Shown here: positions 4,328 through 55,549 of the stretch, one piece after another
How the letters are laid out: every line of letters begins with the position of its first letter
How positions within the stretch are numbered: the stretch's first letter is position 1
Origin: Candidatus Brocadiia bacterium
GTDB taxonomy: Bacteria; Planctomycetota; PUPC01
NCBI GenBank assembly: GCA_030605345.1
Contig: JAUWIN010000002.1
Span: 1,672-65,671 of the forward strand
Length of the DNA stretch: 64,000 nucleotides
Direction: 5' to 3'
The notes under the pieces: generated by a model
Told to the model about the DNA's origin: nothing
What the model saw: the letters and a program-made list of their open reading frames with translations, nothing else
Databases searched by the model: none
Made by a program: the position numbers and the translations under genes

Positions 4328-5992
4328 TCATTTGCCGGCCATCATGGCCTCGATATCCGCATCAACCGTATCGATTGGCTTGATATCGAATTTATCCACC
4401 AGGACTTTGGCCACGTTCGGGGACAGGAACGCGGGGAGAGTAGGCCCGAGCCGAATCCCCGTGACGCCCAGATGCAAAAGTGCGAGCAGAACCGTCACGG
4501 CCTTCTGCTCGTACCAGGCGATGTCGTAGGATATTGGGAGTTCGTTGATGTCGTCCAGCCCGAAGGCCTCCTTCAATTTCAAGGCAATCACCGCAAGTGA
4601 ATAGCAGTCGTTACACTGCCCGGCATCGAGCACCCGCGGGATACCGCCGATATTCCCAAGATCGAGTTTGTTGTAACGGTATTTGGCGCAGCCGGCCGTG
4701 AGAATTACCGTGTCCTTCGGCAGTTTTTCAGCCATTTCCGTGTAGTAATTTCTGGTTTTGTGCCTGCCGTCGCATCCGGCCATGACCACGAAACGTTTGA
4801 TGGCTCCGGACTTCACTGCCTCCACTACTTTGTCCGCCAGGGCGAGGACTTGGTTACGTGCGAATCCGGCGGTGATTTTGCCGGTTTCGATTTCCACGGG
4901 CGGCTCGCACGTTTTTGCCAGTTCAATGATTTCAGAAAAATCCTTGGCTCCGCCCTGGGGTCTGTCAGGAATATGTTTCGCATCTGGATATCCCGTCATG
5001 CCCGTGGTAAAGAGTCTGTCCTGATAGGTGTTATTCTTTTTGAGTGGGACCAGACAGTTCGTGGTCATCAGGATCGGCCCGTTGAAGGACTCGAATTCCT
5101 GGTTCTGGTGCCACCAGGAGCCGCCGTAATTGCCTACGAAATGCTCGTATTTCTTGAACGCCGGGTAGCAATTAGCGGGCAACATCTCGCCGTGAGTATA
5201 GACATCAACGCCGGCCCCCTCGGTCTGCGTGAGGAGTTCTTCCATGTCTTTCAAGTCGTGCCCACTTATCAGGATGCCGGGGCGACTGCGAACGCCGATG
5301 TTCACCTCGGACATCTCCTGGTGCCCGTAGGCGGAGGTGTTTGCTTTGTCCAGCAGAGCCATCGTGTTCACTGCAACTTCTCCGGACTTCAGGACCAGAT
5401 CGATCATCTCATTCACCGAGAGGTCTCTGGTGGTGGAAACCAGCGCGGTCATAATGAAATCGTAGATGTCATCCTGTTCGAGCCCGAGGATGGCCGCGTG
5501 GTCTGCATAGGCCGCAGTGCCTTTCAGGCCGATGGTCAGCAGCTCCCGCAGAGAACGCACATCTTCATCTTCGGTTGTGAGGATGCCAACGGTCTTCGCC
5601 CTTTCGTGAAACTCTGCGGGGGCATCGGATGTCCACGTTGCCGCGTCGTGCAACGCTTCGTCAAAATCCTTCCCGTGTTTCTCTTTGTAGGCGGCGGTGA
5701 ACTTGTCTTTGAGTGCCTCCCGGCGTTTCAACGCCTCTCTGACCATGCTGATGAACCGCTCATTATCCCAATTGACATTAGTGATGGTCGCAAAAAGCGC
5801 CTGTGCCACGAACTTGCCGGTCTGCCGGTCGGAGATTTCAAGCTCCCTTGCCTTTTCGGCATAGATGCTGATTCCTTTCAGCACGTAGATCAACAGGTCC
5901 TGCAAGTTGGCTGTTTCCTCAGACTTTCCGCAAACGCCCTTGACCGTACAACCCGTATTCTTGGCGGTCTCCTGACACTGAAAACAAAACAT
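4328..5992 (-). CDS. hcp: Hydroxylamine reductase / hybrid cluster protein Hcp
   Basis: N-terminal [16 protein letters not shown]ys cluster and length (~555 aa) typical of Hcp; ATG at 5992 preceded by AAGGAGGG RBS; the ORF-track start at 6070 adds 26 non-conserved residues. Confidence 0.85.
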
Positions 5993-6299
5993 ACTCACCC
6001 TCCTTTTTCTGAAGGTATCAACGTTCCCCGCCTCACCCGCACCATACCTGTGCCGGGGCAGCGGATTCACCGGATTACATACTATAACATTCCCTTAGGC
6101 GGTATCCAGATCGATCGCGTGAGAAATTCATCAACTGGTGATTGGCGGACAGATGCACCAGCGGTTTGGCAGCTGTCGCCCGCGCCGACGCCCGGCATCG
6201 CTGTTTACTTGCCCGGCGGAAGTTCGAAATGTCGGGCTGGGGTGCGATAGCGACCACGTGTCGGCTTCTCAGATTACCGATATATTCTCAACAAAATGG

Positions 6300-13806: not shown

Positions 13807-14745
13807 TTGTCTGACTGTGTACCAAGCGCCGTGACTCAGAAGTGGGATGTCTTCATTTCCCACGCGTCTGAAGACAAGGAGAGCTTTGTACGCCCCTTGG
13901 CTATCGCGCTGCGAAGACTCGACGTTTCGGTGTGGTATGACGAGTTCTCATTGCGGGTGGGCGACAGCATTTCCGGCGCCATCGACAAGGGGCTTGCGGA
14001 GTCCGCGTACGGTCTTGTTGTGATCAGCCGAGCGTTCATTGAGAAGCCTTGGCCCAAGCGCGAACTCCGTGGTCTTGTCACGAGGGAAGTTGGAGGCCGC
14101 AAGGTCATCTTGCCAATATGGCATGGCCTCACGCACAGGGAAGTCATGAAGTTCAGCCCGCCGCTCGCCGACGCGCTGGCAATCGACACTGCCAAGGTAA
14201 GCCCTCAAGATGCAGCAATTCAGATCCTGCAAGTTGTTCGGCCAGACCTCTATAATGGGCACCCACGCTCTCAGCTTGAGAAGTTGGCTACTGGTGAAGC
14301 CATCACAGACCTACAGCGAGAGGTCGAACGAGCCCGCGCAGAACAAGAAGCCTTGCGTGAAGAGCTATCTGAATATCAATGCCCCTACTGTGAAGCGCCG
14401 CTAGCTATCAGGGTCGATGCGCCAGTTGACGAGGAACAGAAGCACTGGGACATGCGCGAGGCCTACGAGTGCGGCTACCAGTGTTTTGGCGGCTCCATGG
14501 AGAGGCCGTGCCCAGCCGACCCGAAGTCCCCGAAGTTCGAAGATTACGAGTTGCGGTTCACCGAGGACCCCGAGGAGCCGAAGTGGTGCTGCCACGCAGT
14601 GCCCAAAACGTATATGGCCCGACTTTTGTGGCTATCATCGGGTTACGGCGCCACAAGGAAGGAAGCGGAACGCTCTGTGCGGGATCAATACAACGCATGT
14701 GCCCGAAGAGCGCGCAAGCAGCCGGGCAACGGTGGAACGCAATAA
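13807..14745 (+). CDS. TIR-domain protein with C-terminal coiled-coil and Cys-rich (zinc-ribbon-like) extension; ThsB-like
   Basis: WDVFISHASEDKESFVRPLAIALRRLDVSVWYDE ... SRAFIEKPWPKRELRGL: canonical bacterial TIR motifs including conserved Glu; TTG start with AGAGGG RBS; C-terminal CPYCEAP...YECGYQCFGG...CPADP...WCCH. Confidence 0.8.
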   Translation: MSDCVPSAVTQKWDVFISHASEDKESFVRPLAIALRRLDVSVWYDEFSLRVGDSISGAIDKGLAESAYGLVVISRAFIEKPWPKRELRGLVTREVGGRKVILPIWHGLTHREVMKFSPPLADALAIDTAKVSPQDAAIQILQVVRPDLYNGHPRSQLEKLATGEAITDLQREVERARAEQEALREELSEYQCPYCEAPLAIRVDAPVDEEQKHWDMREAYECGYQCFGGSMERPCPADPKSPKFEDYELRFTEDPEEPKWCCHAVPKTYMARLLWLSSGYGATRKEAERSVRDQYNACARRARKQPGNGGTQ

Positions 14746-14781
14746 TCTGACGACGGGACCGCAGGTCAGGAGAGAAACGGC

Positions 14782-15948
14782 ATGGTTGCGAGCAAAGCGG
14801 AAAGAGACCTGGTGCTATTCCTCGGTGCAGGCTTTTCGCGCGATGCTGGCCTACCTATCATGAGCGAGTTCGGAGCGAGTTCGAGAAGAGCCTACAGGCG
14901 CTGCAGAATGAAGCAGGACAGACGCGAAATGGGGCCTATTTACGTCAAAGCTGGCGCGGTATTCAGAAAGTTTCAGCAGTTCTGCAGCCGTGGGGGTTCC
15001 GTGCTGAGCATCGACCACGACAATATGGAGGTCGTCTTCTGTGTGGCAGAGGCCCTGCGCCAAACGTTGGGTTCATCAGCGAAGATCCTGCGGTCATACG
15101 GCAGGGATTACACTGCCGCTGAGGTGTATGAACAGATCCAAGTGTGGCTGTGGAAGATGTACCAAGTTAATCCCTTGCCCAGGGATTGGCGGCAGAGCCG
15201 CTACACAACATTCGTGAAAGCGCTGAAGAACGCGAAAGCACCAGAGAAAGTTGCGGTTATAACTACCAACTACGACCTGGTCTTCGAATCATTCGCTTGG
15301 AGAGTGGGGCTGCCGTGCGAGTATGCTGTAGCCAATTCTCGGCGCATATCTGGAGGAGGACGCACTGAATCGTATTTGGCCAGCGGGCCCGGACCCCGCC
15401 CTTTGCTCGTGTGCAAGCTTCACGGCAGCATCAATTATTTCACCGATTCAGGAGAAGACGAACAGCTCTTCATCTGCGACGACGTCCTCAAGAGCGGCGA
15501 CTACGTCACCGAGGATGGTAGAGTCAGGCATGGAGGCACAGAGCGGCCTTGGGTTCTCTCCTTTGACGCGGTAACCCGGCTGCGCAGGAAATACAAGGGG
15601 GATTTCGTGCCCGCCCTCATTCCCCCTACCTACGGTAAGCTGGAGCAATTCGATTGGCTGAGACGCATCTGGAGAAGTGCATTTGATGCACTCAGGTCTG
15701 CCAAGAAGCTTGTATTCATTGGATATAGCATGGCTGAGAGCGATGGTCATTTGCGCGCCATGATACAATCGGCCATGTCCAAGCGCACGCTGGCTAGTCC
15801 GCCCGAGGTCTACGTTTTTGACCCGTCACCTGAAGCGCTGGTGCGGTATCGTCAGTTCTTTGCTCCTCTGAAGTTAGCCTCGGCCCAACACCTCTGGGGT
15901 ATGGATTTCGCAACCACCTGCGACACAAAGCTTCCGGACGTGCTGTAG
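14782..15948 (+). CDS. SIR2-like (SIR2_2 family) NAD-dependent effector-type protein, no SLOG domain
   Basis: LFLGAGFS...GLP N-terminal motif, ITTNYD, CKLHGS (His), VFIGYSMAESD motifs all match SIR2_2/ThsA-N-terminal family; AGGAGAG RBS; 36 bp downstream of TIR gene. Confidence 0.75.
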   Translation: MVASKAERDLVLFLGAGFSRDAGLPIMSEFGASSRRAYRRCRMKQDRREMGPIYVKAGAVFRKFQQFCSRGGSVLSIDHDNMEVVFCVAEALRQTLGSSAKILRSYGRDYTAAEVYEQIQVWLWKMYQVNPLPRDWRQSRYTTFVKALKNAKAPEKVAVITTNYDLVFESFAWRVGLPCEYAVANSRRISGGGRTESYLASGPGPRPLLVCKLHGSINYFTDSGEDEQLFICDDVLKSGDYVTEDGRVRHGGTERPWVLSFDAVTRLRRKYKGDFVPALIPPTYGKLEQFDWLRRIWRSAFDALRSAKKLVFIGYSMAESDGHLRAMIQSAMSKRTLASPPEVYVFDPSPEALVRYRQFFAPLKLASAQHLWGMDFATTCDTKLPDVL

Positions 15949-16235: not shown

Positions 16236-16446
16236 TCCAACCAGGGTTGTTAACCGGAACGCTCTCGCCGGGTGAGAGTCCGAGAGCCTTCGGCTTTTCG
16301 GCCAGACGTGGCGGGATTCCGGTTAACTGAAAGAGAGAATCGCGGCGCGCCATACAGTAGAAGTCGTTCTGGCGACTTCACTGTATGTTGACGCCATCAG
16401 GTGAAGCAAGTGGCGCGAGCTTCTACTTTGGGAAGGGGAGAGGCGG

Positions 16447-16713: not shown

Positions 16714-16831
16714 AGGGAAGGCACCAGCCGGTTTTGGAGGATACGCAGGCCCCCCTGTAGTGGAAACTCGCTACGCTCGGTTCACTGCAGGGCATCGCCA
16801 TACAGTGAAGCCGCCCGCGGCATCTACTGTA

Positions 16832-16918
16832 TGGCTCCTCGGGTAGGACTCGAACCTACAGCCTAGCGGTTAATCCGCCTCCGGCGGACCGCTCTACCAA
16901 TTAAGCTATCGAGGAAAC
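16832..16918 (-). tRNA. tRNA gene, class II (long variable arm); anticodon tentatively GGA (Ser) with encoded CCA
   Basis: Minus-strand cloverleaf readable: U8, D-loop A14/G18G19/A21, anticodon stem GTCCG/CGGAT, T-arm GTAGG-TTCGAGT-CCTAC, 7-bp acceptor with one mismatch, G73, CCA; anticodon loop CCGGAGG is atypical (C33). Confidence 0.6.
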
Positions 16919-22942: not shown

Positions 22943-23437
22943 ATGCGAAAAATCATGGTGGACCTCCAACTGTGCATGGGCTGCAACAGTTGCGAGATTG
23001 CCTGCGCAGTTCAGCACTCGCAAAGCGGTGATCTCTTCGAAGCGTTGAAAGAGCCTGTCCTGCCCGGATACCGCCTGCGAGTGAGGGCAAGCTACGGGAT
23101 GCCGTTCCCGCTGCGCTGCGAGCAGTGCGAGGACGCACCCTGCATCGATGCCTGCAAGAGTGGTGCAATGGCCCGCGACCCGGAGACCGCCTCGGTGCAG
23201 ATCGATGAAGACAAATGTGTGGGGGGCTGGATGTGCGTGATGGTCTGTCCATTTGGAGCGGTTTTCCCTGATATGGAAAGGGGCAAGGCGGTCAAGTGCG
23301 ACCTTTGCCGCGGGCACGAACGGCCCGCCTGCGTGGACGCCTGTCCCACCAAAGCCCTGAGCTACGTCGAGCCGGACGAGTTCGCCGCCCGGTACATGCG
23401 CGCCGAAGCCGCAAAGACCTCAACGGAGGCTGAGTGA
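22943..23437 (+). CDS. cooF: CooF-like 4Fe-4S ferredoxin-type electron transfer protein
   Basis: CMGCNSCEIAC, CEQCEDAPCIDAC, CVGGWMCVMVCP, CDLC...CVDACP cluster motifs; follows cooS. Confidence 0.75.
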   Translation: MRKIMVDLQLCMGCNSCEIACAVQHSQSGDLFEALKEPVLPGYRLRVRASYGMPFPLRCEQCEDAPCIDACKSGAMARDPETASVQIDEDKCVGGWMCVMVCPFGAVFPDMERGKAVKCDLCRGHERPACVDACPTKALSYVEPDEFAARYMRAEAAKTSTEAE

Positions 23438-45588: not shown

Positions 45589-48240
45589 CTAACACACCTT
45601 GTTTTTCCCGCTGTCCTTTGCCCTGCCCAGCGCCGCCGCAGAGCGGCGTATGAGGCTGGTCGGAGCCAGGTCCTCCTCGCGGAACGAGCCGAGCCCGACG
45701 CTGACGGTGGTCTTGATTGCTTTATCTTTCACCAGGAACTTGTGCTCCTCCACCAAGCTTCGCAGCCGTTCGGCGAACGCCCTGGCGCCCTCCTCGTCGG
45801 TTTCGGGCGCGATGATGAGGAGTTCATCGCCGCCGAACCGTCCGACCACGTCGGTCTCACGTATCCTTTCCTTCAGAAATTTTTTCACTTCCTCCTTTAC
45901 CAGCTCCTCAAGTTGAAGAAGAGTAGTGTCGCCGTTCTCGTAGCCGTACTTCTGGTTGAGGACAGTGAAGTCGTCGATGTCGGGCATCAGGACGGAGAAC
46001 CTGACACCGTACCGTCTGGAGCGTCTGATTTCGCGCTCCATTGCCGCGTAGAGTTGTGGCTTGTCGTGCTCGCGGCAGTCCACCGGCAGTTCGAAGGAGA
46101 ATGCGGCGCCCTCGTCGGGCGTGTTGTCCGCCCATATTCGCCCGCCGTGCTTGGTGATAATCTCCTCGCATATGGGCAGCCCAAGCCCCGTTCCGCCTGT
46201 CCTCCGCGTCATTGAGTGATCAACCTGGTAGAACTTGTCGAAAACGTGCTCCAAGTCCTGCTCTGGGATGCCGGGGCCGGTGTCGGTCACGCTGACGAGG
46301 ACGTATCCTTCGCCGGAGACCGGGGAGCGCTCGCCCGGCGCTCCGACTTGCTGGGCGGGGTCAGGCGGTCGGCGCTTTGCCTCGACCGTAATGTAGCCAC
46401 CTTCCGGGGTGAACTTCAGCGCGTTCCCCAGCAGATTCGTCAAGACCCGTTCGATCAGATCAGGGTCCGCCCAGAGCACGGGCAGGTGGTCCGGCACCCG
46501 CAGGTTGATTTCGACCCGCCTCGGGCGGGCCACGGGGACAAAGACCTGAACCGCCGAGTCCAGCATCTGGCGGAGGTCGAGCGGTGCAAGTTTCATCTCC
46601 ATCTTGCCCGCTTCCAGTTTCGACAAGTCCAGCAGGTCGTTGATCAGCCGTGAAAGCCGGTCGAGGTTGTTCATCATTCTGGTCAGGGTCTCGCGCTGCC
46701 CCTCTGTCAGTTCTCCCTCCACCCCGTCGAGCAGGTTGCTGGAGAACATCTTAACGGAGGCGAGGGGCGTGCGGAGTTCGTGTGAGACCACGGCAACGAA
46801 GTCCGACTTCATCCGGTCGAGTTCGCGCTCGCGGGTAACGTCCCGTATGATGCCCAGCCGCCCGAGGTGCTCGCCCCTGGCGTTCTTGACCGGGCTCACT
46901 GCCACGGCAAGTGCCCTCGGAGTAGGTTCGCCGTCGGCGCTGAATTCCCTGACCGCGCCGGTGCCCTCCATCGGCTCCGCCAGGAACAAACCGATTTCTC
47001 TCCACATCACCGACTTTAAGAAGCTCTCGGTAGTGAACTCCTCGCTGGCTGCCAGGCCGAGCATTGACCTCGCTGCGCGGTTGAGCACACCCAGTTCATC
47101 GTTGGCGTCAAACATCACCACGCCCTCGGACATGCTCGCCACCATCGACTGCATCTTGTCCTGCTCGCCCCGGATGGTATTCTGCAAGCGTTCGACCGTC
47201 TGCCCCATCTTCCGAACGATCGTATGGAGCAGGGCAGTGTCGTCCGCCGAGAACGCGTTTTGGCGCCGGCTGGTGAGGCAGATCATCCCCATCGCCTGGC
47301 TGCCCACCTCCAGGGGCACGGCAACAATGGACTGCGGGGAAGGCCCGTCGGCCGGCGGCAGCCCCCGGCGGAGGGTCTCTAACCTTTCAGACACAGCCGC
47401 TCCGTGTGGCCGCGCCGCCAGGCAGTCCACCAGGCACCGTTTCACCTCGACCACATAGCCCTCGGGCACGTCGTGAAGGACCCGAGTTTCGAAGTCCTCC
47501 CTGCCCCTCAAAATGAGCAGCGAGCAAAACACGTCATAATCCAGAAGTTTCTCCAGCGACGACCCCAGCAGTTTGATGAGGTGCTGATAGCCCAAGCCAT
47601 ACCGCAGCGAACTGGATACCTGGTAGAGGATGTTTGACTCGAACGCGCTGCGCTTGAGTTGCTCCTTCTCGCGGCTCAGTTCAGAGACCAACCGCGAGTT
47701 CTGAATCGCGATGGCCGCCTGGTTCGCCAGCGCCGTGAGGAGGGCAAGATCGTTCTCCGAAAAGGAGATGTCGTCCGAGCGGTTGGTGAGATTGATCACG
47801 CCGAGCACGTCGTCCTTGTGCATCAGCGGAACGATAGCGAAGGAGCCGGTTCGATACTGGCTCTTGCTTTTTCGCTGGAAGCGCGGGTCGCCCTCCAAGT
47901 CGCTGACGACCAGCGGTTCGCCGGACAGGGCGACCTTTCCAGACAACCCTTCACCCGGCACCACCCGGGTGTCAGCCACTACCTGGTCAGGAACATTGCG
48001 CGCCGCTCGAATCCTCATCTCGTTGGTGTCTTCGTCAATCAGCATCAGCGAGACTTTCTCCGCCTGGAAAATGCGGTAGGCACCATCGATGATGCGGTCG
48101 AGGCACTGATCGATATCAAGCGTCGAATTGACGTGCTCGGCCACCTCGTAGAGCAGGGTTAGCCGGGACGTATCTCCTGAGGAACTCCTTTGACCGGTTA
48201 CCTTCCCGCCGGTCTGCGCGCTGACCTGATTCGAAGGCAT
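45589..48240 (-). CDS. Hybrid sensor: tandem GAF domains - histidine kinase (HisKA/HATPase) - C-terminal GGDEF-like domain (GGDEL variant)
   Basis: H-box VSHELRTPLASV, N/G boxes GGTGLGLPICEEIITKHGG, then RFGGDELLIIAP (GG[DE]EF position) near C-terminus. Confidence 0.7.
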   Translation of the reverse strand: MPSNQVSAQTGGKVTGQRSSSGDTSRLTLLYEVAEHVNSTLDIDQCLDRIIDGAYRIFQAEKVSLMLIDEDTNEMRIRAARNVPDQVVADTRVVPGEGLSGKVALSGEPLVVSDLEGDPRFQRKSKSQYRTGSFAIVPLMHKDDVLGVINLTNRSDDISFSENDLALLTALANQAAIAIQNSRLVSELSREKEQLKRSAFESNILYQVSSSLRYGLGYQHLIKLLGSSLEKLLDYDVFCSLLILRGREDFETRVLHDVPEGYVVEVKRCLVDCLAARPHGAAVSERLETLRRGLPPADGPSPQSIVAVPLEVGSQAMGMICLTSRRQNAFSADDTALLHTIVRKMGQTVERLQNTIRGEQDKMQSMVASMSEGVVMFDANDELGVLNRAARSMLGLAASEEFTTESFLKSVMWREIGLFLAEPMEGTGAVREFSADGEPTPRALAVAVSPVKNARGEHLGRLGIIRDVTRERELDRMKSDFVAVVSHELRTPLASVKMFSSNLLDGVEGELTEGQRETLTRMMNNLDRLSRLINDLLDLSKLEAGKMEMKLAPLDLRQMLDSAVQVFVPVARPRRVEINLRVPDHLPVLWADPDLIERVLTNLLGNALKFTPEGGYITVEAKRRPPDPAQQVGAPGERSPVSGEGYVLVSVTDTGPGIPEQDLEHVFDKFYQVDHSMTRRTGGTGLGLPICEEIITKHGGRIWADNTPDEGAAFSFELPVDCREHDKPQLYAAMEREIRRSRRYGVRFSVLMPDIDDFTVLNQKYGYENGDTTLLQLEELVKEEVKKFLKERIRETDVVGRFGGDELLIIAPETDEEGARAFAERLRSLVEEHKFLVKDKAIKTTVSVGLGSFREEDLAPTSLIRRSAAALGRAKDSGKNKVC

Positions 48241-48533: not shown

Positions 48534-48800
48534 CGATATGGATAATAGGAGAGTGCAAGAACGGAGGCAATCCGATGAGGATCTGGTCCCGAACTCCGCA
48601 ATCTGGGGTAGAACCGGTCGTATCTGAGCCTCAGAGCCGAAGGGAAGATTTGCCAAGGTCAAAAACATCCCACGGTTCGTGCACTTGGCCGCATATCTTT
48701 GGGAAGACCGCCCTGACTGCGACCTAAGAGCTGTATGCTGAACCGACTGGGGTAGGGGGGCTTCACGCTCAGAAAAATATCACACGATCTTTGCAACGGT
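48534..48800. repeat. Copy A of a ~250 nt non-coding repeat element (core 48669..48799 ~90% identical to 54457..54587)
   Basis: Direct comparison of the two intergenic regions: shared cccacggttcg..ccgcatatctttggga..gactgcgacctaagagc..tgctgaacc..ggtaggggggcttcacgct.agaaaaatatcacacgatcttt; weaker similarity extends ~130 nt upstream. Confidence 0.55.
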
Positions 48801-48818
48801 TACCAGATTGGTTTTGGC

Positions 48819-48847
48819 TTGACGCACATACAACGCATCAGCATAAT
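48819..48847 (+). promoter_or_regulatory. sigma70-like promoter TTGACG-17-CATAAT upstream of purF, immediately after repeat copy A
   Basis: Read directly: ttgacgcacatacaacgcatcagcataat. Confidence 0.4.
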
Positions 48848-49034
48848 ATGCAAACTTCAGTCACCGGACCACCCGAGAGACTCGTGATCGGCAAGAAACA
48901 AAACGAGGTGCCGGGTGCTTCTTTCCTGCCGCAGCCGACGATTGCATAAAGCCCGGCCGACCGGTCGAGAGACGCACAACCTTTCCAGCGACGCTTCCGA
49001 CATCTGTGAACTCAGAAAGGCACGGTAACCCGGA

Positions 49035-50435
49035 ATGGCAGGTCCACGCGAGTACTGCGGCGTCTTCGGCATCTTCGGCGACAATTGCGCCGCCGACCGG
49101 GCATATTTCGGCCTCTACGCCCTGCAACATCGGGGCCAGGAGAGCGCCGGCATCGTGACATCGGACGGCAAAGCCCTGCACGTGCGCCGCGGCATGGGGC
49201 TGGTCCCGCAGGTGTTCAGTCCGGGTGACTTTGAATCGACCCGCGTCGGCAGCGCCGCCATCGGGCACAATCGCTACTCGACGACAGGCACGTCCGACAT
49301 CGTCAACGCGCAGCCCATCGTCGTGCAGTTCAAGAGCGGCTGGATCGCAGCGGCGCACAACGGCAACCTCACGAATGCCGCCGAGCTGCGCCGAATGATG
49401 GAAGAGGACGGCTCGATCTTTCACGCCACCAGCGACACCGCAGTCGTCGTGCACCTGATTGCGCGGTCGAAAGAGAAAAGAATCGAAGACATGGTCTTCG
49501 ACGCGCTCAGCCAGTACGAGGGCGCCTTCAGCTTCGTCTTCCTGACGCCCACGCAGCTCATCGCCGCGCGCGACCCACGCGGGGTCCGCCCGCTCTGCCT
49601 CGGCAAGCTCGACGGCGCGGCAGTTGTCGCATCGGAATCTTGCGCTCTCGATATCATGAAAGCCGAGTACGTCCGGGACATCGAGCCGGGCGAGGTGCTC
49701 GTCATCGACAAGGACGCTCAGAGATCGCTCCGACTGCCGGAGGCCCCGCGTCTGGCGAAGTGTATTTTCGAGTTCATCTACTTCTCTCGTCCGGACAGCG
49801 TGATCTTCGGCGAGAACGTGGACAAGATCCGGCGCCGCCTGGGGCACCTCCTTGCGGAGGCCCCGGCCGATGCGGACATCGTGATCGCCGTGCCCGACTC
49901 CGCCAACACGGCCGCCTTGGGATACGCGGAGTAATCGGGCATCCCTTTCGAGATTGGCCTCATCCGAAACCACTACATCGGGCGGACGTTCATCTCGCCG
50001 CGGCAGGACGAGCGCGACCGCGACGTACGCGTGAAGTTCAACCCCGTCGCCAGCGTCTTGAGGGACAAGCGTGTGGTGCTGGTCGAGGACTCGATTGTGC
50101 GCGGCACGACACTGCGGAATCTCGTTCGGCTGGTCCGCAGCGGAGGCGCGGCCAAGGTCCACGTGCGCGTCAGCTCGCCGCCCATCATCGCACCGTGCTT
50201 CTACGGAATCGACATACCGACCAAGGCCGAGCTGATCGCCGCGAACAAGTCACTCGACGAAATCCGCGAGTTCGTCGGCGCCGACTCGCTCGAGTACCTC
50301 TCACCCGACAGCTTGCGGAAGGCGGTCGACAATCCGGAGAACTTCTGCATGGGCTGCTTCACCGACAGCTATCCCGCACCCCTGCCGAAAGAGTTCGACA
50401 AGAAAATGTTTGGAGCAGGAACAAGTGACCAGTGA
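49035..50435 (+). CDS. purF: Amidophosphoribosyltransferase PurF, interrupted by in-frame TAA at 49932..49934
   Basis: N-terminal Ntn-glutaminase domain ([10 protein letters not shown] with propeptide) in ORF 49035..49934 and PRTase domain in ORF 50031..50435 are in the same frame; sequence reads ...[24 protein letters not shown] where PurF proteins have ...YAEESGIP... Confidence 0.8.
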
Positions 50436-50737
50436 TAAGTAACTTGCGACATGCCAAAGACTATCGAGATTTGCTTGCCTACCGGAAGGCGGCTCATGTG
50501 ACATATTCCATCTTTGAATTGATGCGAAGCCTTCCAAAGGCTGAAACGTACTGCCTGACCGATCAAGTGCGGCGTTCATCTCGCTCCGTCGGCGCACAGA
50601 TCGCCGCCGGATACACGCTCGACGACATACAGAACGGCATCACGCCCGTCTACGAGTCCGTCGACACGTGCGCGGCCGAGTTCACAGCATTCACCCCTTA
50701 CTACTATTCGAGCTATGAAAAAGAAACCGGAGCCTGA
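50432..50737 (+). CDS. Four-helix-bundle protein (23S rRNA intervening-sequence protein family)
   Basis: ~100 aa helical ORF with ...[10 protein letters not shown]...[10 protein letters not shown]... resembling the S23-ribosomal/IVS four-helix-bundle family; overlaps purF stop and annotated guaA start. Confidence 0.45.
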
Positions 50738-52319
50738 TCCCCACCGCGCGCGGGCAAATAAGAACAACGAGGCCGACGGGCCGAAAGAGCTTGTGGCAAT
50801 TCTTGATTTCGGCTCGCAGTACACGCAACTCATAGCGCGGAGCGTGCGCGAGCTTGGCGAATACTCGGAAATCGTACGCCACGACATCCGAGCGGCGAAG
50901 TTGGCCGCTCGCAAGCCGAAGGCCATCATCCTCTCCGGCGGGCCGGCGAGCGTCCCGGCCAAGAGCAGCCCGCGCTGCGACAAGGCCATCTTCGAGCTCG
51001 GCGCGCCCGTCCTCGGCATCTGCTACGGCATGGAGCTCATAGCCCACATGCTCGGCGGGGTCGTCGTCGGCTCCGACGAACGCGAATACGGCCACGCGTT
51101 GCTCAACGTTACAAAAAGCTGCGCTCTGTTCAAGGGGCTCGGCAAGAAGTTCTCCGTCTGGATGAGCCACGGTGACCGTGTCGAGAAACTCCCACGCGGA
51201 TTCGACGTCATCGGCCAAAGCTACAGTTCGCCGGTCGCGGCGATGCGTCACCGTTCGCAAAAGCTTTACGGCGTCCAGTTCCATCCAGAAGTAGTCCACA
51301 CACCCAACGGCACGAAGATTCTGCGGAACTTTCTCTTCAACGTGGCGAAGTGTCATGGCAAGTGGAGCATGGCCTCGTTCGCCGAGACGACCATCGCTGA
51401 AATCCGCGAGCACGTCGGCTCCGACCGCGTCCTGTGCGGGATAAGCGGCGGCGTGGATTCTTCCGTGCTCGCCTGCCTGCTTCACCGCGCCATCGGCGAC
51501 CAACTTCAGTGCGTACTTGTCAACAACGGCCTCTTGCGGAAGAACGAACACCGCGAGGTGGTCGACACGTTCAAAAAATCCATCGGCCTGGACGTGAAAT
51601 ACGTGAACGCATCGAGTGAGTTTCTCAAGCGGCTCCGAGGCGTGGCCAGCCCGGAGCGGAAACGGCACATCATCGGCAACGCGTTCGTCCGCGTTTTCGA
51701 GCGGACGGTGAAGGAACTTGGCCAGTTCAAGTACCTCGCGCAGGGCACGCTCTATCCCGACGTAGTAGAGAGCAACTCCGCGTTCGGCGGGCCGTCGGCC
51801 GTGATCAAGACGCACCACAACGTCGGCGGGCTGCCCGAGCGGATGACGTTCAAGCTGATCGAGCCGTTCCGGTACCTGTTCAAGGACGAAGTCCGGCAGC
51901 TGGGGAGAGAGATCAAGGTCCCGGAGAAGACGATCTGGCGGCATCCGTTCCCCGGGCCCGGCCTGGCCGTTCGCATCATCGGCCCCATCACTCGCGGCAA
52001 GTTGCGGGTGCTGCGTGACGCCGACGCGATCTTCATCGAGGAATTGCGAGCTAACAAGCTCTACGGCAAAATCTGGCAGGCGGTCGCCGTGTTGCTCTCG
52101 GGCAAGGCGGTCGGCGTGATGGGCGACGAACGGACCTACGCAAACGTAATCGGGCTGCGCGCGGTCACCAGCCGCGACGGGATGACGGCCGACTGGGCCC
52201 GAATTCCGCAGAAGGTGCTGGCGCACATCGCCAACCGAATCATCAACGAGGTGAAGGGCGTCAACCGGGTCGTGTACGACGTCAGCTCGAAGCCACCGAG
52301 CACGATCGAATGGGAATAG
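50715..52319 (+). CDS. guaA: GMP synthase (glutamine-hydrolysing) GuaA
   Basis: [20 protein letters not shown]ase N-terminus, [10 protein letters not shown]-loop, C-terminal dimerisation domain; true start may be GTG at 50793. Confidence 0.85.
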
Positions 52320-52380: not shown

Positions 52381-53976
52381 ATGGCAAAGTACGTGTTTGT
52401 GACAGGCGGCGTGGTCTCGTCGTTGGGCAAGGGCATCACGGCGGCATCGATCGGCTGCATGCTCAAATCGTATGGCCTGCGCGTGAACATGCTCAAGATC
52501 GACCCATACCTCAACGTCGACCCCGGCACAATGGGCCCCTACCAGCACGGCGAAGTATACGTGACCGACGACGGGGCCGAGACCGACCTCGACCTCGGCA
52601 ACTACGAGCGCTACCTCGACAAGAACATGGGCCGGAAGAACAACATCACCACCGGCTCGGTCTACGAGACGATTCTGAAGAAGGAACGGCGCGGCGACTT
52701 CCTCGGCGGCACGGTCCAAGTGATACCGCACGTCGTCAATGAGATCAAGTCGCGTATCCGCGCGCTCGGGCCGGGCAGCGACGTGGTCATCATCGAGGTC
52801 GGCGGGACCACCGGCGACATCGAAGGGCTGCCGTTCCTCGAGGCCATTCGGCAGTTCCCCTTCGACGTCGGCCACGGAAACGTGTGCTACGTTCACGTCA
52901 CTCTTATCCCCTACATCCGCGCGGCCCAGGAGATGAAGACGAAGCCGACGCAGCAGAGCGTCGCCAAGCTCCGCGAGATCGGCGTCCAGCCCGACGCTAT
53001 CATCTGCCGCACCGAACGCCCGCTCACCAAGGGAATGAAGGAGAAAATTTCCCTCTTCTGCAACGTACCCGTCCACGCCGTAATCGAGGAACTCGACGTA
53101 CAGACCTCGATCTACGAAGTGCCCAGCGAACTCGAGCGGCTCGGCCTCGGCAAGATCCTGCTCAGGAATCTCGGCCTCAAGAAGAAGCACCGGCGGAAGA
53201 ACGGGCTGGACAGGTATGTCGACGTCCTGCGGAACGCCGAGCAGACCGTCAGGGTCGGCGTCGCCGGGAAATACACGCACCTCAAGGACGCCTATAAGAG
53301 CATCTGGGACGCCCTTATCCACGCGGGCGTCGCCAACGGCGTCAAGGTGGCCATCAAGTACATCGACGTCGAGAAGCCCGATCTCGAAGACCAGCTCGCG
53401 AAAGCCGACGGCATCCTCATCCCCGGCGGATTCGGCGACCGCGGCAGCGAGGGCAAGATCGACACGGTCCGCTACGCTCGCGAGAACAAAGTCCCGTTCC
53501 TCGGTCTTTGTGTCGGCATGCAGATCGCTGTGATCGAGTTCGCCCGGAACGTGTGCGGCCTGAAGGGAGCCAACAGTACCGAGTTCACGCTCCGCACGAA
53601 ACACCCCATTATTGATCTCCTGCCGGAGCAGCGGAAGATCCGCAACATGGGCGCGACGATGCGGCTCGGCGCCTATCCATGCGTACTCAAGCCGGGCACG
53701 TTCTCGCGCCGGGCCTATGGCAAGGAACTCATCTCAGAGCGCCACCGCCACCGCTACGAACTGAATAATAAGTACCGCCGCACGCTCGAGAAGCACGGAA
53801 TGGTGATCGCGGGCGAGCATAAGAAGAAGCAGCTTGGCGAAATCGTCGAGATTCCAGATCATCCGTGGTTCGTGGCAACGCAGTTCCATCCCGAGTTCAA
53901 AAGCCGTCCCCTCCGGCCGCACCCTCTCTTCCGTGAATTCATCAAGGCCGCGAAGAAGAACAGCTGCAAGAGGTGA
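52381..53976 (+). CDS. pyrG: CTP synthase PyrG
   Basis: MAKYVFVTGGVVSSLGKGITAASIG N-terminus, GATase C-terminal domain (GLCVGMQ), 531 aa. Confidence 0.9.
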   Translation: MAKYVFVTGGVVSSLGKGITAASIGCMLKSYGLRVNMLKIDPYLNVDPGTMGPYQHGEVYVTDDGAETDLDLGNYERYLDKNMGRKNNITTGSVYETILKKERRGDFLGGTVQVIPHVVNEIKSRIRALGPGSDVVIIEVGGTTGDIEGLPFLEAIRQFPFDVGHGNVCYVHVTLIPYIRAAQEMKTKPTQQSVAKLREIGVQPDAIICRTERPLTKGMKEKISLFCNVPVHAVIEELDVQTSIYEVPSELERLGLGKILLRNLGLKKKHRRKNGLDRYVDVLRNAEQTVRVGVAGKYTHLKDAYKSIWDALIHAGVANGVKVAIKYIDVEKPDLEDQLAKADGILIPGGFGDRGSEGKIDTVRYARENKVPFLGLCVGMQIAVIEFARNVCGLKGANSTEFTLRTKHPIIDLLPEQRKIRNMGATMRLGAYPCVLKPGTFSRRAYGKELISERHRHRYELNNKYRRTLEKHGMVIAGEHKKKQLGEIVEIPDHPWFVATQFHPEFKSRPLRPHPLFREFIKAAKKNSCKR

Positions 53977-54013
53977 GAGAGGGTCAGGGGTTATTGAAGC
54001 TCATATTGACAAT

Positions 54014-54050
54014 GGGACCCCAAGAAACAGCAGAGGTCCCTCGTTTCGCT
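54014..54050 (+). terminator. Possible weak terminator hairpin after pyrG (GGGACC-15nt-GGTCCC followed by T-rich tract)
   Basis: Read directly; loop is long so confidence is low. Confidence 0.25.
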
Positions 54051-54351
54051 CAGGATGACGGCAACTGCTTCGCAACTGTGCTGCGTGAACAAAACGCGTC
54101 ATTCTGAGCGCCACCGAAGAATCTCATGGCTTCGTCCTGCGATTCCATTACCAACATGGGCTCAATGGTCTCGCCAGCTTGTTATGTCATCTTCCGTGCC
54201 GTCTTCTCCGTCAAGCCCGACGGGGACACTTTGTGCATTGTCTTGTCCTGTCCCAGTGCCGATCACAAATTGCGGCTCGTTGTCCGGGTCCTAGTAATGG
54301 CCAAACTAACGCGTAATCGGGGTAGGACCGGCAAGAGGAAAACGACGGCCA

Positions 54352-54590
54352 CGATGATAATGAGGCCAAAGAGAATGCACCGGCCTGGCCAGAACAACCA
54401 CCGAACCGAAAGCGCCTGCCGGAATGTTCTTGCAGGAATTCGTCAACAACGGACAGCCCACGGTTCGGGCAGTTGACCGCATATCTTTGGGAAAACCGCC
54501 ATGACTGCGACCTAAGAGCCGTGTGCTGAACCGGCTGCGGTAGGGGGGGCTTCACGCTGAGAAAAATATCACACGATCTTTGGAAGGATT
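54352..54590. repeat. Copy B of the ~250 nt non-coding repeat element (core 54457..54587)
   Basis: See copy A; lies 20 nt upstream of a consensus promoter. Confidence 0.55.
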
Positions 54591-54607
54591 ACGCATCGCC
54601 AGCTCGG

Positions 54608-54636
54608 TTGACAATTCCACCTCCCTATCGTATTAT
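54608..54636 (+). promoter_or_regulatory. Near-consensus sigma70 promoter TTGACA-17-TATTAT; predicted TSS only a few nt before the CAP-gene ATG (leaderless or very short leader)
   Basis: Read directly: ttgacaattccacctccctatcgtattat then gtagtgagtaATG. Confidence 0.45.
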
Positions 54637-54646
54637 GTAGTGAGTA

Positions 54647-55549
54647 ATGGACGAGCAATCAGAATCCGGAGCTGAACAGAGCGAACCCCCTGGACGGTCT
54701 CAATTCCTGCCCCCGGCGGTACGTTCCTTTCTTCTGGCCAGCCTAATCCTCGCGACACTTCTGCCCGTTGTCCACGCCGGTGAGCCTCCCTGCGCGGCGC
54801 TGGAGAAGAAGATGTTCGCGCTGGCGAACAAGGACCGGAAGAAACGCAAAAAAAAACCGTTGAAGTATGATGAGCGGCTGGCCTGTATCGCCCGGGCACA
54901 CAGTGCCGACATGGTGCGGAATAAGTTTTTCGCCCACAAGTCGCCCACCACTGGGAAGGTAGGCGACCGGCTTTTCACCGCAAAGGTGAAGGTGACCAGC
55001 TGCGGCGAGAACATCGCCATGAATACTTCCGTCGAGCGGGCACACATAGAACTGATGAATAGCCCCGGGCACCGAAAGAATATTCTCCGCCGCACGTTCA
55101 CACGCTGCGGCATCGGGATCATCCGGGCAGACAATGGCCTCCTGTATGCGACACAAGTGTTCGCCGAACCCGCGCCGGAGGTGGACCTGGAAAAGCTCAG
55201 AGCCGACATCGTCGCGAAGCTGAACAAGACAAGGAGCAAGCTCGGCAGGCCCGCGTTGGAGGTAAGCCCGGTGCTGTGTCGCCTCGCGGCGAGGCAGGCT
55301 GAAGCCATGGCCAAGGCGGGCGAGCCGATTGCGCTGGATGCCGGGGCTATGGCAAAACAGGCAGGACTCAACCGCAAACGATTGCACGTGGGACACATTG
55401 TCACCTGGAACCCGGAAGACCTCGCGGGAATGTCCCCGCTGCTTAAGCCGCAGGTTGGGCAATTGGGCTTGGGCTTCGCGGAAAACACCGAGCACAAGGA
55501 ACTGGGTTATGGAATCATCTGTGCAGTGGTATTGTTCACAAATGACTGA
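54647..55549 (+). CDS. Secreted CAP-domain (SCP/PR-1-like) protein, apparently two CAP repeats
   Basis: Signal-peptide-like segment then FFAHKSPTTGKVGDRL...GENIAMN and a second diverged repeat; CAP/SCP signature. Confidence 0.6.
   Translation: MDEQSESGAEQSEPPGRSQFLPPAVRSFLLASLILATLLPVVHAGEPPCAALEKKMFALANKDRKKRKKKPLKYDERLACIARAHSADMVRNKFFAHKSPTTGKVGDRLFTAKVKVTSCGENIAMNTSVERAHIELMNSPGHRKNILRRTFTRCGIGIIRADNGLLYATQVFAEPAPEVDLEKLRADIVAKLNKTRSKLGRPALEVSPVLCRLAARQAEAMAKAGEPIALDAGAMAKQAGLNRKRLHVGHIVTWNPEDLAGMSPLLKPQVGQLGLGFAENTEHKELGYGIICAVVLFTND

Follow-up and report, generated by a model that had tools for sequence, protein, structure and literature searches.

A non-coding sequence of 140 bp is present in two direct copies, 5,788 nt apart, in the planctomycete DNA analysed here (a stretch of 64 kb, referred to below as the window), and both copies end exactly 15 nt before the -35 hexamer of a promoter, that of the purF operon in one case and that of the CAP-CNNM operon in the other (Table 1). 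Relatives without the repeat have kept both promoters, and the repeat is therefore a lineage-specific newcomer on pre-existing promoters. We tentatively regard the repeat as a duplicated promoter-upstream module that works at the level of DNA, and rank this explanation before a repeat family, a rearrangement scar, a small RNA and an artefact, which follow in that order of falling probability.

Table 1. Coordinates of the two repeat copies and of the features around them, in window positions.
Feature	Position	Strand	Remarks
GAF-histidine kinase-GGDEF gene	45589..48240	-	divergent from purF; first in a pilus/T2SS-like operon
Candidate GAF-kinase operon promoter, TTGCCT-17-TATTAT (9/12)	48542..48570	-	consensus scan; 95 nt left of copy A
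Repeat copy A	48665..48803	+	139 nt; ~-189 to -51 from the inferred purF transcription start
purF operon promoter, TTGACG-17-CATAAT	48819..48847	+	consensus scan; ancestral, outside the repeat
purF leader	48855..49034	+	CCACCCGAGAG ... ACGAGGU.C.GGGUGC, conserved in relatives; no Rfam match
purF	49035..50437	+	in-frame TAA at 49932-49934
bAvd-like and carB remnants	50435..50698	+	between purF and guaA
guaA (GMP synthase)	50715..52319	+	
pyrG (CTP synthase)	52381..53976	+	homology to relatives stops at its stop codon
Spacer from pyrG to copy B	53977..54452	.	476 nt; no similarity to any fetched locus
Repeat copy B	54453..54592	+	140 nt; ~-190 to -51 from the inferred CAP transcription start
CAP-CNNM operon promoter, TTGACA-17-TATTAT	54608..54636	+	consensus scan; ancestral; -10 ends 10 nt before the ATG at 54647
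CAP-domain protein	54647..55549	+	first gene of the conserved CAP-CNNM-CNNM-PHP-FtsY-PgpA block

The extent of the core repeat was the same by gap-free repeat finder, BLASTN and profile search, with 89% identity over 140 aligned columns, and the alignment of copy A with copy B contains 14 substitutions and one 1-nt indel in a G-run. The match between the copies has a BLASTN E value of 4e-48, and their local alignment score of 203 was reached by none of 500 dinucleotide shuffles (15.6 +/- 2.2). The core of ~130 nt and ~90% identity put forward in the original prediction (48669..48799 and 54457..54587) is accordingly real and withstands realignment against chance. The same prediction had described an element of ~250 nt on account of a weaker similarity over another ~130 nt upstream (from 48534 and 54352), and this part did not hold. 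The upstream alignment has a score of 13, whereas shuffles average 14.9 and 443 of 500 do equally well, the ungapped identity in this region is 23-30%, and the number of shared 7-mers is 13 where 13.6 are expected, so that the element measures ~140 nt and not ~250 nt. The similarity drops from 89% to the random level at either side of the repeat, and in the 60 nt beyond it on the promoter side the copies are identical to a random degree only, the two hexamers excepted. These sharp ends, together with the unrelated flanking genes, show that the copies are not part of a segmental duplication that includes coding sequence. The longest run of identity between the copies is 23 nt, compared to 27.6 nt expected (P = 0.73), and the 15 differences are spread evenly, as in random placement, and thus give no sign of selected sub-motifs in the repeat. 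A third or partial copy was not detected in the 64-kb window by nhmmer, even at E<=10. Outside the repeat, a marginal and post hoc island, AATC(T)GGGGTAGRACCGG, was noticed at 48600-48617 and 54314-54331, its only two occurrences in the window; it is not colinear, since it lies to the left of the repeat by 60 nt in the case of copy A and by 134 nt in that of copy B.

Both copies are non-coding, as had been proposed. Six-frame translation gave no reading frame common to the two copies, the indel shifts the frame, the substitutions between the copies have no 3-nt periodicity, and Pfam returned no match to the repeat at E<=10. The small minus-strand ORFs that adjoin each copy are unrelated to each other, and a spurious ORF of 114 aa across copy B retrieved only low-complexity noise when compared by phmmer with 1.84 billion representative proteins. 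A coding remnant is rejected by these frame, Pfam and phmmer results. A 19-mer of the repeat that matches thymidylate synthase coding sequence (QRSCDIFLG) in AT-rich phage contigs was considered as a possible thyA fragment and attributed to chance, since the match covers ~28 nt only and has no Pfam counterpart.

A consensus sigma70-type promoter had been predicted directly after each copy, and the consensus scan confirmed this at both sites, with the -35 hexamer in the same position relative to the repeat end and a spacer of 17 nt in both promoters. Strong promoter-like sites (at least 10/12) are few in the 64-kb window, with six on the plus strand and nine on both strands together, while about two are expected in shuffles. 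Given this scarcity and the gap of 15 nt in both copies, the shared register can hardly be accidental; the probability of its arising by chance is estimated at ~1e-4 to 1e-3, and an accident is very unlikely. The register would instead reflect function, that is selection, or targeting. A fixed phase to the core promoter, by which an upstream regulatory module can be recognised, is found in both copies, and the repeat contains an A-tract at about -84 to -75. The search for transcription-factor motifs in the repeat gave none that was supported. A CRP-like site, TGAGA-N6-TCACA, is present at 9/10 in copy B only, and was rejected as a binding motif because 1.35 such sites per window are expected by chance.

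The age of the two promoters was judged from the relatives. When pyrG, the CAP protein and the GAF-kinase were used to search a protein collection, the closest named matches came from uncultured Planctomycetota MAGs, and the comparison comprised 23 fetched loci (253 kb), of which 17 (~190 kb) are related planctomycete loci. The repeat was found by nhmmer neither in these 17 loci nor in the complete set of 23. Nucleotide homology to the closest relative, L001, sets in 10 nt beyond the right end of copy A, at 48813, or arguably at 48804, includes the promoter and leader of purF, and goes no further than the stop codon of pyrG (53976). The purF promoter is kept with the same 17-nt spacer and with no repeat in three relative lineages (L001, L003 and L006), as is a T-rich stretch just 5' of its -35 hexamer. 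The CAP promoter is likewise kept without the repeat in L009 and L011, in the form TTGAC[A/T]-17-TATCAT-10 nt-ATG, and the 15 nt that separate the -35 hexamer from copy B (GCATCGCCAGCTCGG) already resemble the sequence upstream of the CAP promoter in L009 at 9 of 15 positions, as aligned by eye. Homology to relatives thus begins ~0-10 nt from the right end of each copy, and this promoter-side flank is the only one that is colinear with relatives. The conservation supports the earlier assignment of the promoters to purF and to the CAP gene, and speaks against the suggestion that the repeat delivers promoters, as both predate it and are kept where it is absent. Judged by this comparison, both promoters are older than the repeat, which was joined to each of them at about -51.

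Two features downstream of the promoters are also conserved. The distance of 10 nt between the CAP -10 box and the ATG in the window (54631-54649) recurs in two distant relatives (L009, ~5985-6003; L011, ~6024-6042), which suggests that the CAP operon mRNA is conserved as a leaderless or near-leaderless transcript in Planctomycetota; the start codon at 54647 is supported by conservation of the N-terminus, MDExxExG. In the purF leader, conservation extends over 48855-48975 of the window and the corresponding parts of L001 (3163-3285), L003 (709-830) and L006 (4132-4250), and a 6-bp stem, CCACCC/GGGUGG, is kept across the planctomycete clade. The leader is a candidate for a riboswitch or other cis-regulatory leader acting on purine and pyrimidine genes.

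Further copies of the repeat were sought beyond the window and its relatives. With two exact seeds each, scans of species-representative genomes and of JGI metagenomes gave nothing real, and distant BLASTN against plasmid and phage collections found no copy. A seed match in Shewanella is confined to the seed itself and was discarded as chance, as were the seed matches in viruses. The count, which had been left open in the original prediction, therefore stands at the two copies in the window, with the ~190 kb of related loci and the public seed scans negative.

The copies lie exactly at either side of the purF-guaA-pyrG block, which differs from its counterparts in several respects. Relatives whose pyrG products are 94, 91, 87, 83 and 82% identical in amino acid sequence carry the order purF-(bAvd)-carA-carB-guaA-pyrG. 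The window has lost carA and most of carB, which all relatives have in this operon; what is left of the bAvd-like gene is its first ~60 aa, and the deletion runs from about codon 60 of bAvd into carB. The in-frame TAA codon of purF corresponds to GAA or GAG (Glu) in L001 and L003 and to GCC (Ala) in L006, and stems either from a nonsense mutation in purF or from an error in the sequencing of the MAG. On the left side of the block, ThuA-GFO of L001 and L006 is replaced in the window by the GAF-kinase pilus operon, and on the right the CAP operon takes the place of the AraC or glycosyltransferase genes of the relatives; in relatives, the upstream neighbours of the CAP-CNNM-CNNM-PHP-FtsY-PgpA block are SpoU and other genes. 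Pfam gave no match for two plus-strand ORFs, 54055-54294 and 54126-54476, of the spacer that separates pyrG from copy B. In L003 (10259-13253), three genes have been inserted directly 3' of pyrG, one for an N6/N4 DNA methylase, one PycTM-like and one unknown, and a PemK toxin pair precedes pyrG. In this clade, accessory genes appear to have a hotspot in the flanks of pyrG.

These comparisons show that a discrete non-coding stretch of 140 bp was duplicated specifically in this planctomycete lineage, and that the copies, with orientation and position identical, adjoin the upstream edges of two different older promoters, of which one drives the purF-guaA-pyrG operon and the other the CAP-CNNM operon. 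In the explanation that we tentatively place first, the duplication would have followed the split from the sequenced relatives, and the repeat would have replaced whatever lay further upstream at each promoter. It would act, if at all, as DNA, in the manner of a portable module from ~-51 to -190, and could offer binding or architectural sites, the A-tract included, and with them a common upstream input for two unrelated operons. This explanation is the only one that makes use of the register. Against it stand the relatives, which run the same promoters without the repeat, and the even spread of the differences, together with the chance level of the CRP-like motif, and we know of no mechanism that copies 140 bp to the same register at two promoters without homology at the junctions. 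Only two copies are known, moreover, so that a regulon-like role would be hypothetical. For the conserved upstream regulatory module named in the original prediction, the part that stands is a promoter-coupled role at the DNA level, favoured by the identical register, while conservation of the module itself is contradicted by the relatives that have both promoters and no repeat. The repeat resembles upstream activating sequences and UP elements in its fixed place upstream of the -35 hexamer, here at two promoters, and in its A-tract. Canonical UP elements are located at -40 to -60, and known activator sites measure 16-22 bp. The repeat differs from both in running from -51 to -190, in being a duplicated block of 140 bp and in having no identified activator site. 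If the register does reflect function or targeting, the two operons would represent regulatory rewiring by the copying of a whole 140-bp block, unlike the point evolution of operators. To our knowledge, transcriptional regulation in Planctomycetota is almost unstudied.

The second explanation, which we consider unlikely, although it heads the rivals, is that the repeat belongs to a small, non-autonomous mobile or dispersed family specific to this lineage, without inverted ends and with more copies elsewhere in the genome, and that its place next to promoters results from a preference in insertion or from survival where insertion is harmless. The length of 140 bp, the non-coding nature and the sharp ends are what such a family would show, the repeat is present here and absent at the same promoters in relatives, and two copies per 64 kb would amount to many per genome if the family were dispersed. 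However, a 6-nt seed search of the copies and their flanks gave no terminal inverted repeats common to both, no hairpin, subterminal ones included, is conserved in both copies, and no target-site duplication is seen in the flanks of copy A (GGTCAAAAAC|...|CAGATTGG) or of copy B (CAACGGACAG|...|GCATCGCC). Pfam identified no transposase, integrase or recombinase among the ~50 largest of the 56 window ORFs of at least 110 aa, and neither the window nor the public seed scans or the plasmid and phage collections yielded another copy, whole or partial. At purF, colinearity with relatives is lost on the left side of copy A, which is at odds with a simple insertion into an intact site. The MITE-like candidate of the original prediction thus survives in so far as the repeat is discrete, small, non-coding and absent from relatives, and fails in that it has neither terminal inverted repeats nor a target-site duplication; the copies found number two.

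Like Correia/NEMIS elements (Neisseria), ERIC/IRU, RUP and BOX, the repeat falls within 100-200 bp and is non-coding, discrete, intergenic and near promoters, and like promoter-proximal MITEs in general it varies in presence and absence between relatives. Correia elements have TA as their target-site duplication. The repeat is unlike promoter-proximal MITEs in lacking terminal inverted repeats, a target-site duplication and hairpin potential, in being known from two copies and in supplying no promoter. A literature search for such repeats in Planctomycetes found only a survey of REP sequences (PMC3733652), which describes them as stem-loops of 20-40 bp tagged by GTAG or CGTC and mobilised by the associated RAYT transposases, and reports them in the PVC superphylum. 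The repeat is intergenic like REP/BIME sequences and also holds a GTAG (48752-48755), but this has no adjoining stem-loop, the unit is 140 bp long, and there is no RAYT/IS200-like gene in the window and no Y1 transposase among the window ORFs scanned. Overall, the repeat fits none of the described families tested, and small intergenic repeats adjacent to promoters are a familiar kind, of which it is a variant; what is unusual in it is the combination of absent transposon hallmarks with an exact register to two older promoters.

Somewhat less probable still is that the copies are a neutral by-product, without function, of the rearrangement that placed purF-guaA-pyrG between the GAF-kinase and CAP operons, either by way of a circular intermediate integrated through recombination within the repeat or by a long target duplication during insertion. 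Such a scar would agree with direct repeats that enclose precisely the block whose flanks differ from all relatives, with the decay of this block (the purF nonsense codon and the carA/carB deletion), and with the evenly spread substitutions, which fit neutral drift. It leaves the same distance of 15 nt to both promoters unexplained, however, and the regions between operons are synteny breakpoints throughout the relatives, so that coincidence with a breakpoint carries little weight. No recombinase is present in the block or in the window ORFs scanned, and a donor with the repeat next to purF was not seen in any relative. An arrangement of attL/attR type was also considered, and no integrase or foreign cargo lies between the copies, just purF, guaA, pyrG and the bAvd/carB remnants. 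In Vibrio cholerae, the repeats that flank integron cassettes (attC) are direct, ~120 bp in length and ~90% alike. The present copies are comparable to such chromosomal attC sites as direct repeats of ~120-140 bp with ~90% identity that bracket a gene block, yet they contain no imperfect palindrome and no RYYYAAC/GTTRRRY core sites, their 3' ends (GGTTACC and GATTACG) misfit GTTRRRY, and intI is missing; in addition, what they enclose is a housekeeping operon of 5.6 kb that has a promoter of its own, where an integron cassette is promoterless. If the repeat is a rearrangement scar, or a selfish repeat of low copy number, it is ordinary.

It is tempting to speculate, with a probability that we consider slight, that the repeat is an upstream cassette of a new kind, mobile or recombination-borne and without inverted ends, which docks on pre-existing promoters ~15 bp upstream of their -35 hexamers. 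Such a cassette would dock at the upstream edge of the RNA-polymerase footprint, replace upstream regions and so rewire operons to a common regulator. If true, it would be a promoter-targeting portable enhancer in Planctomycetota.

A pair of paralogous small RNA genes, or of cis-acting RNA elements, on either strand, was among the candidates of the original prediction and is now highly improbable. The length of ~140 nt and the ~90% identity between intergenic copies recall sRNA paralogues, and a possible extended -10 (TGTGATATT) on the minus strand was seen by eye, although not called by the scan, in the 23-nt identical block. Other observations are unfavourable. At gathering score, the sole Rfam match in the 64-kb window is a tRNA elsewhere in it, and within copy A no match appeared even at E<=10, so that no family was assigned to the repeat. 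The minimum free energies, with z = +0.36 to +0.90 on both strands, are no better than those of shuffles, and RNAalifold detected no compensatory pairs, in a comparison of two sequences that has low statistical power. When copy B was replaced by 300 simulated partners with equal numbers of randomly placed transitions and transversions, 82% (plus strand) and 55% (minus strand) of the partners folded as well or better, and the differences between the real copies avoid paired columns no better than those in the simulated partners. The scan found no promoter-like site before and no terminator-like site after the repeat on either strand, and a plus-strand transcript would enter another promoter directly. 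The known sRNA pairs PrrF1/2 and OmrA/B are similar to the repeat in consisting of two intergenic copies of like length and similarity a few kb apart, whereas the repeat is without a promoter or terminator of its own, a stable fold, structure-preserving substitutions or an Rfam match. An sRNA would have been the most attractive explanation had it held, and it is unsupported whichever of the others is right.

Finally, an assembly artefact or chance similarity, which might come to mind because the source is a metagenome-assembled genome and the contig appears in NCBI only, can be dismissed as extremely improbable in view of the alignment statistics and the identical runs of at most 23 nt, and a repeat-induced misjoin is not plausible since the flanks are unique and gene-consistent and the promoter side is colinear with relatives.

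Some observations concern other parts of the window. Genes with a TIR_2 domain and a SIR2_2 domain lie side by side (13807-15948) and resemble a Thoeris-like defence pair; a tRNA-Ser(gga) gene on the minus strand (16832-16915) adjoins them, and between this tRNA gene and the pair are inverted-repeat arms of 57 nt (16371-16427 and 16759-16815). An 85-nt tRNA-Ile(gat) called by ARAGORN at 23233-23317 was not reported by the Rfam tRNA model at gathering score and may be an atypical tRNA or a false call. The segment 20984-33843 contains a CODH/ACS (Wood-Ljungdahl) cluster with CdhC, CdhD, RACo, pterin-binding methyltransferase and prismane/CooS-like genes, a gene content which suggests an anaerobic metabolism of the acetogenic type in this planctomycete.
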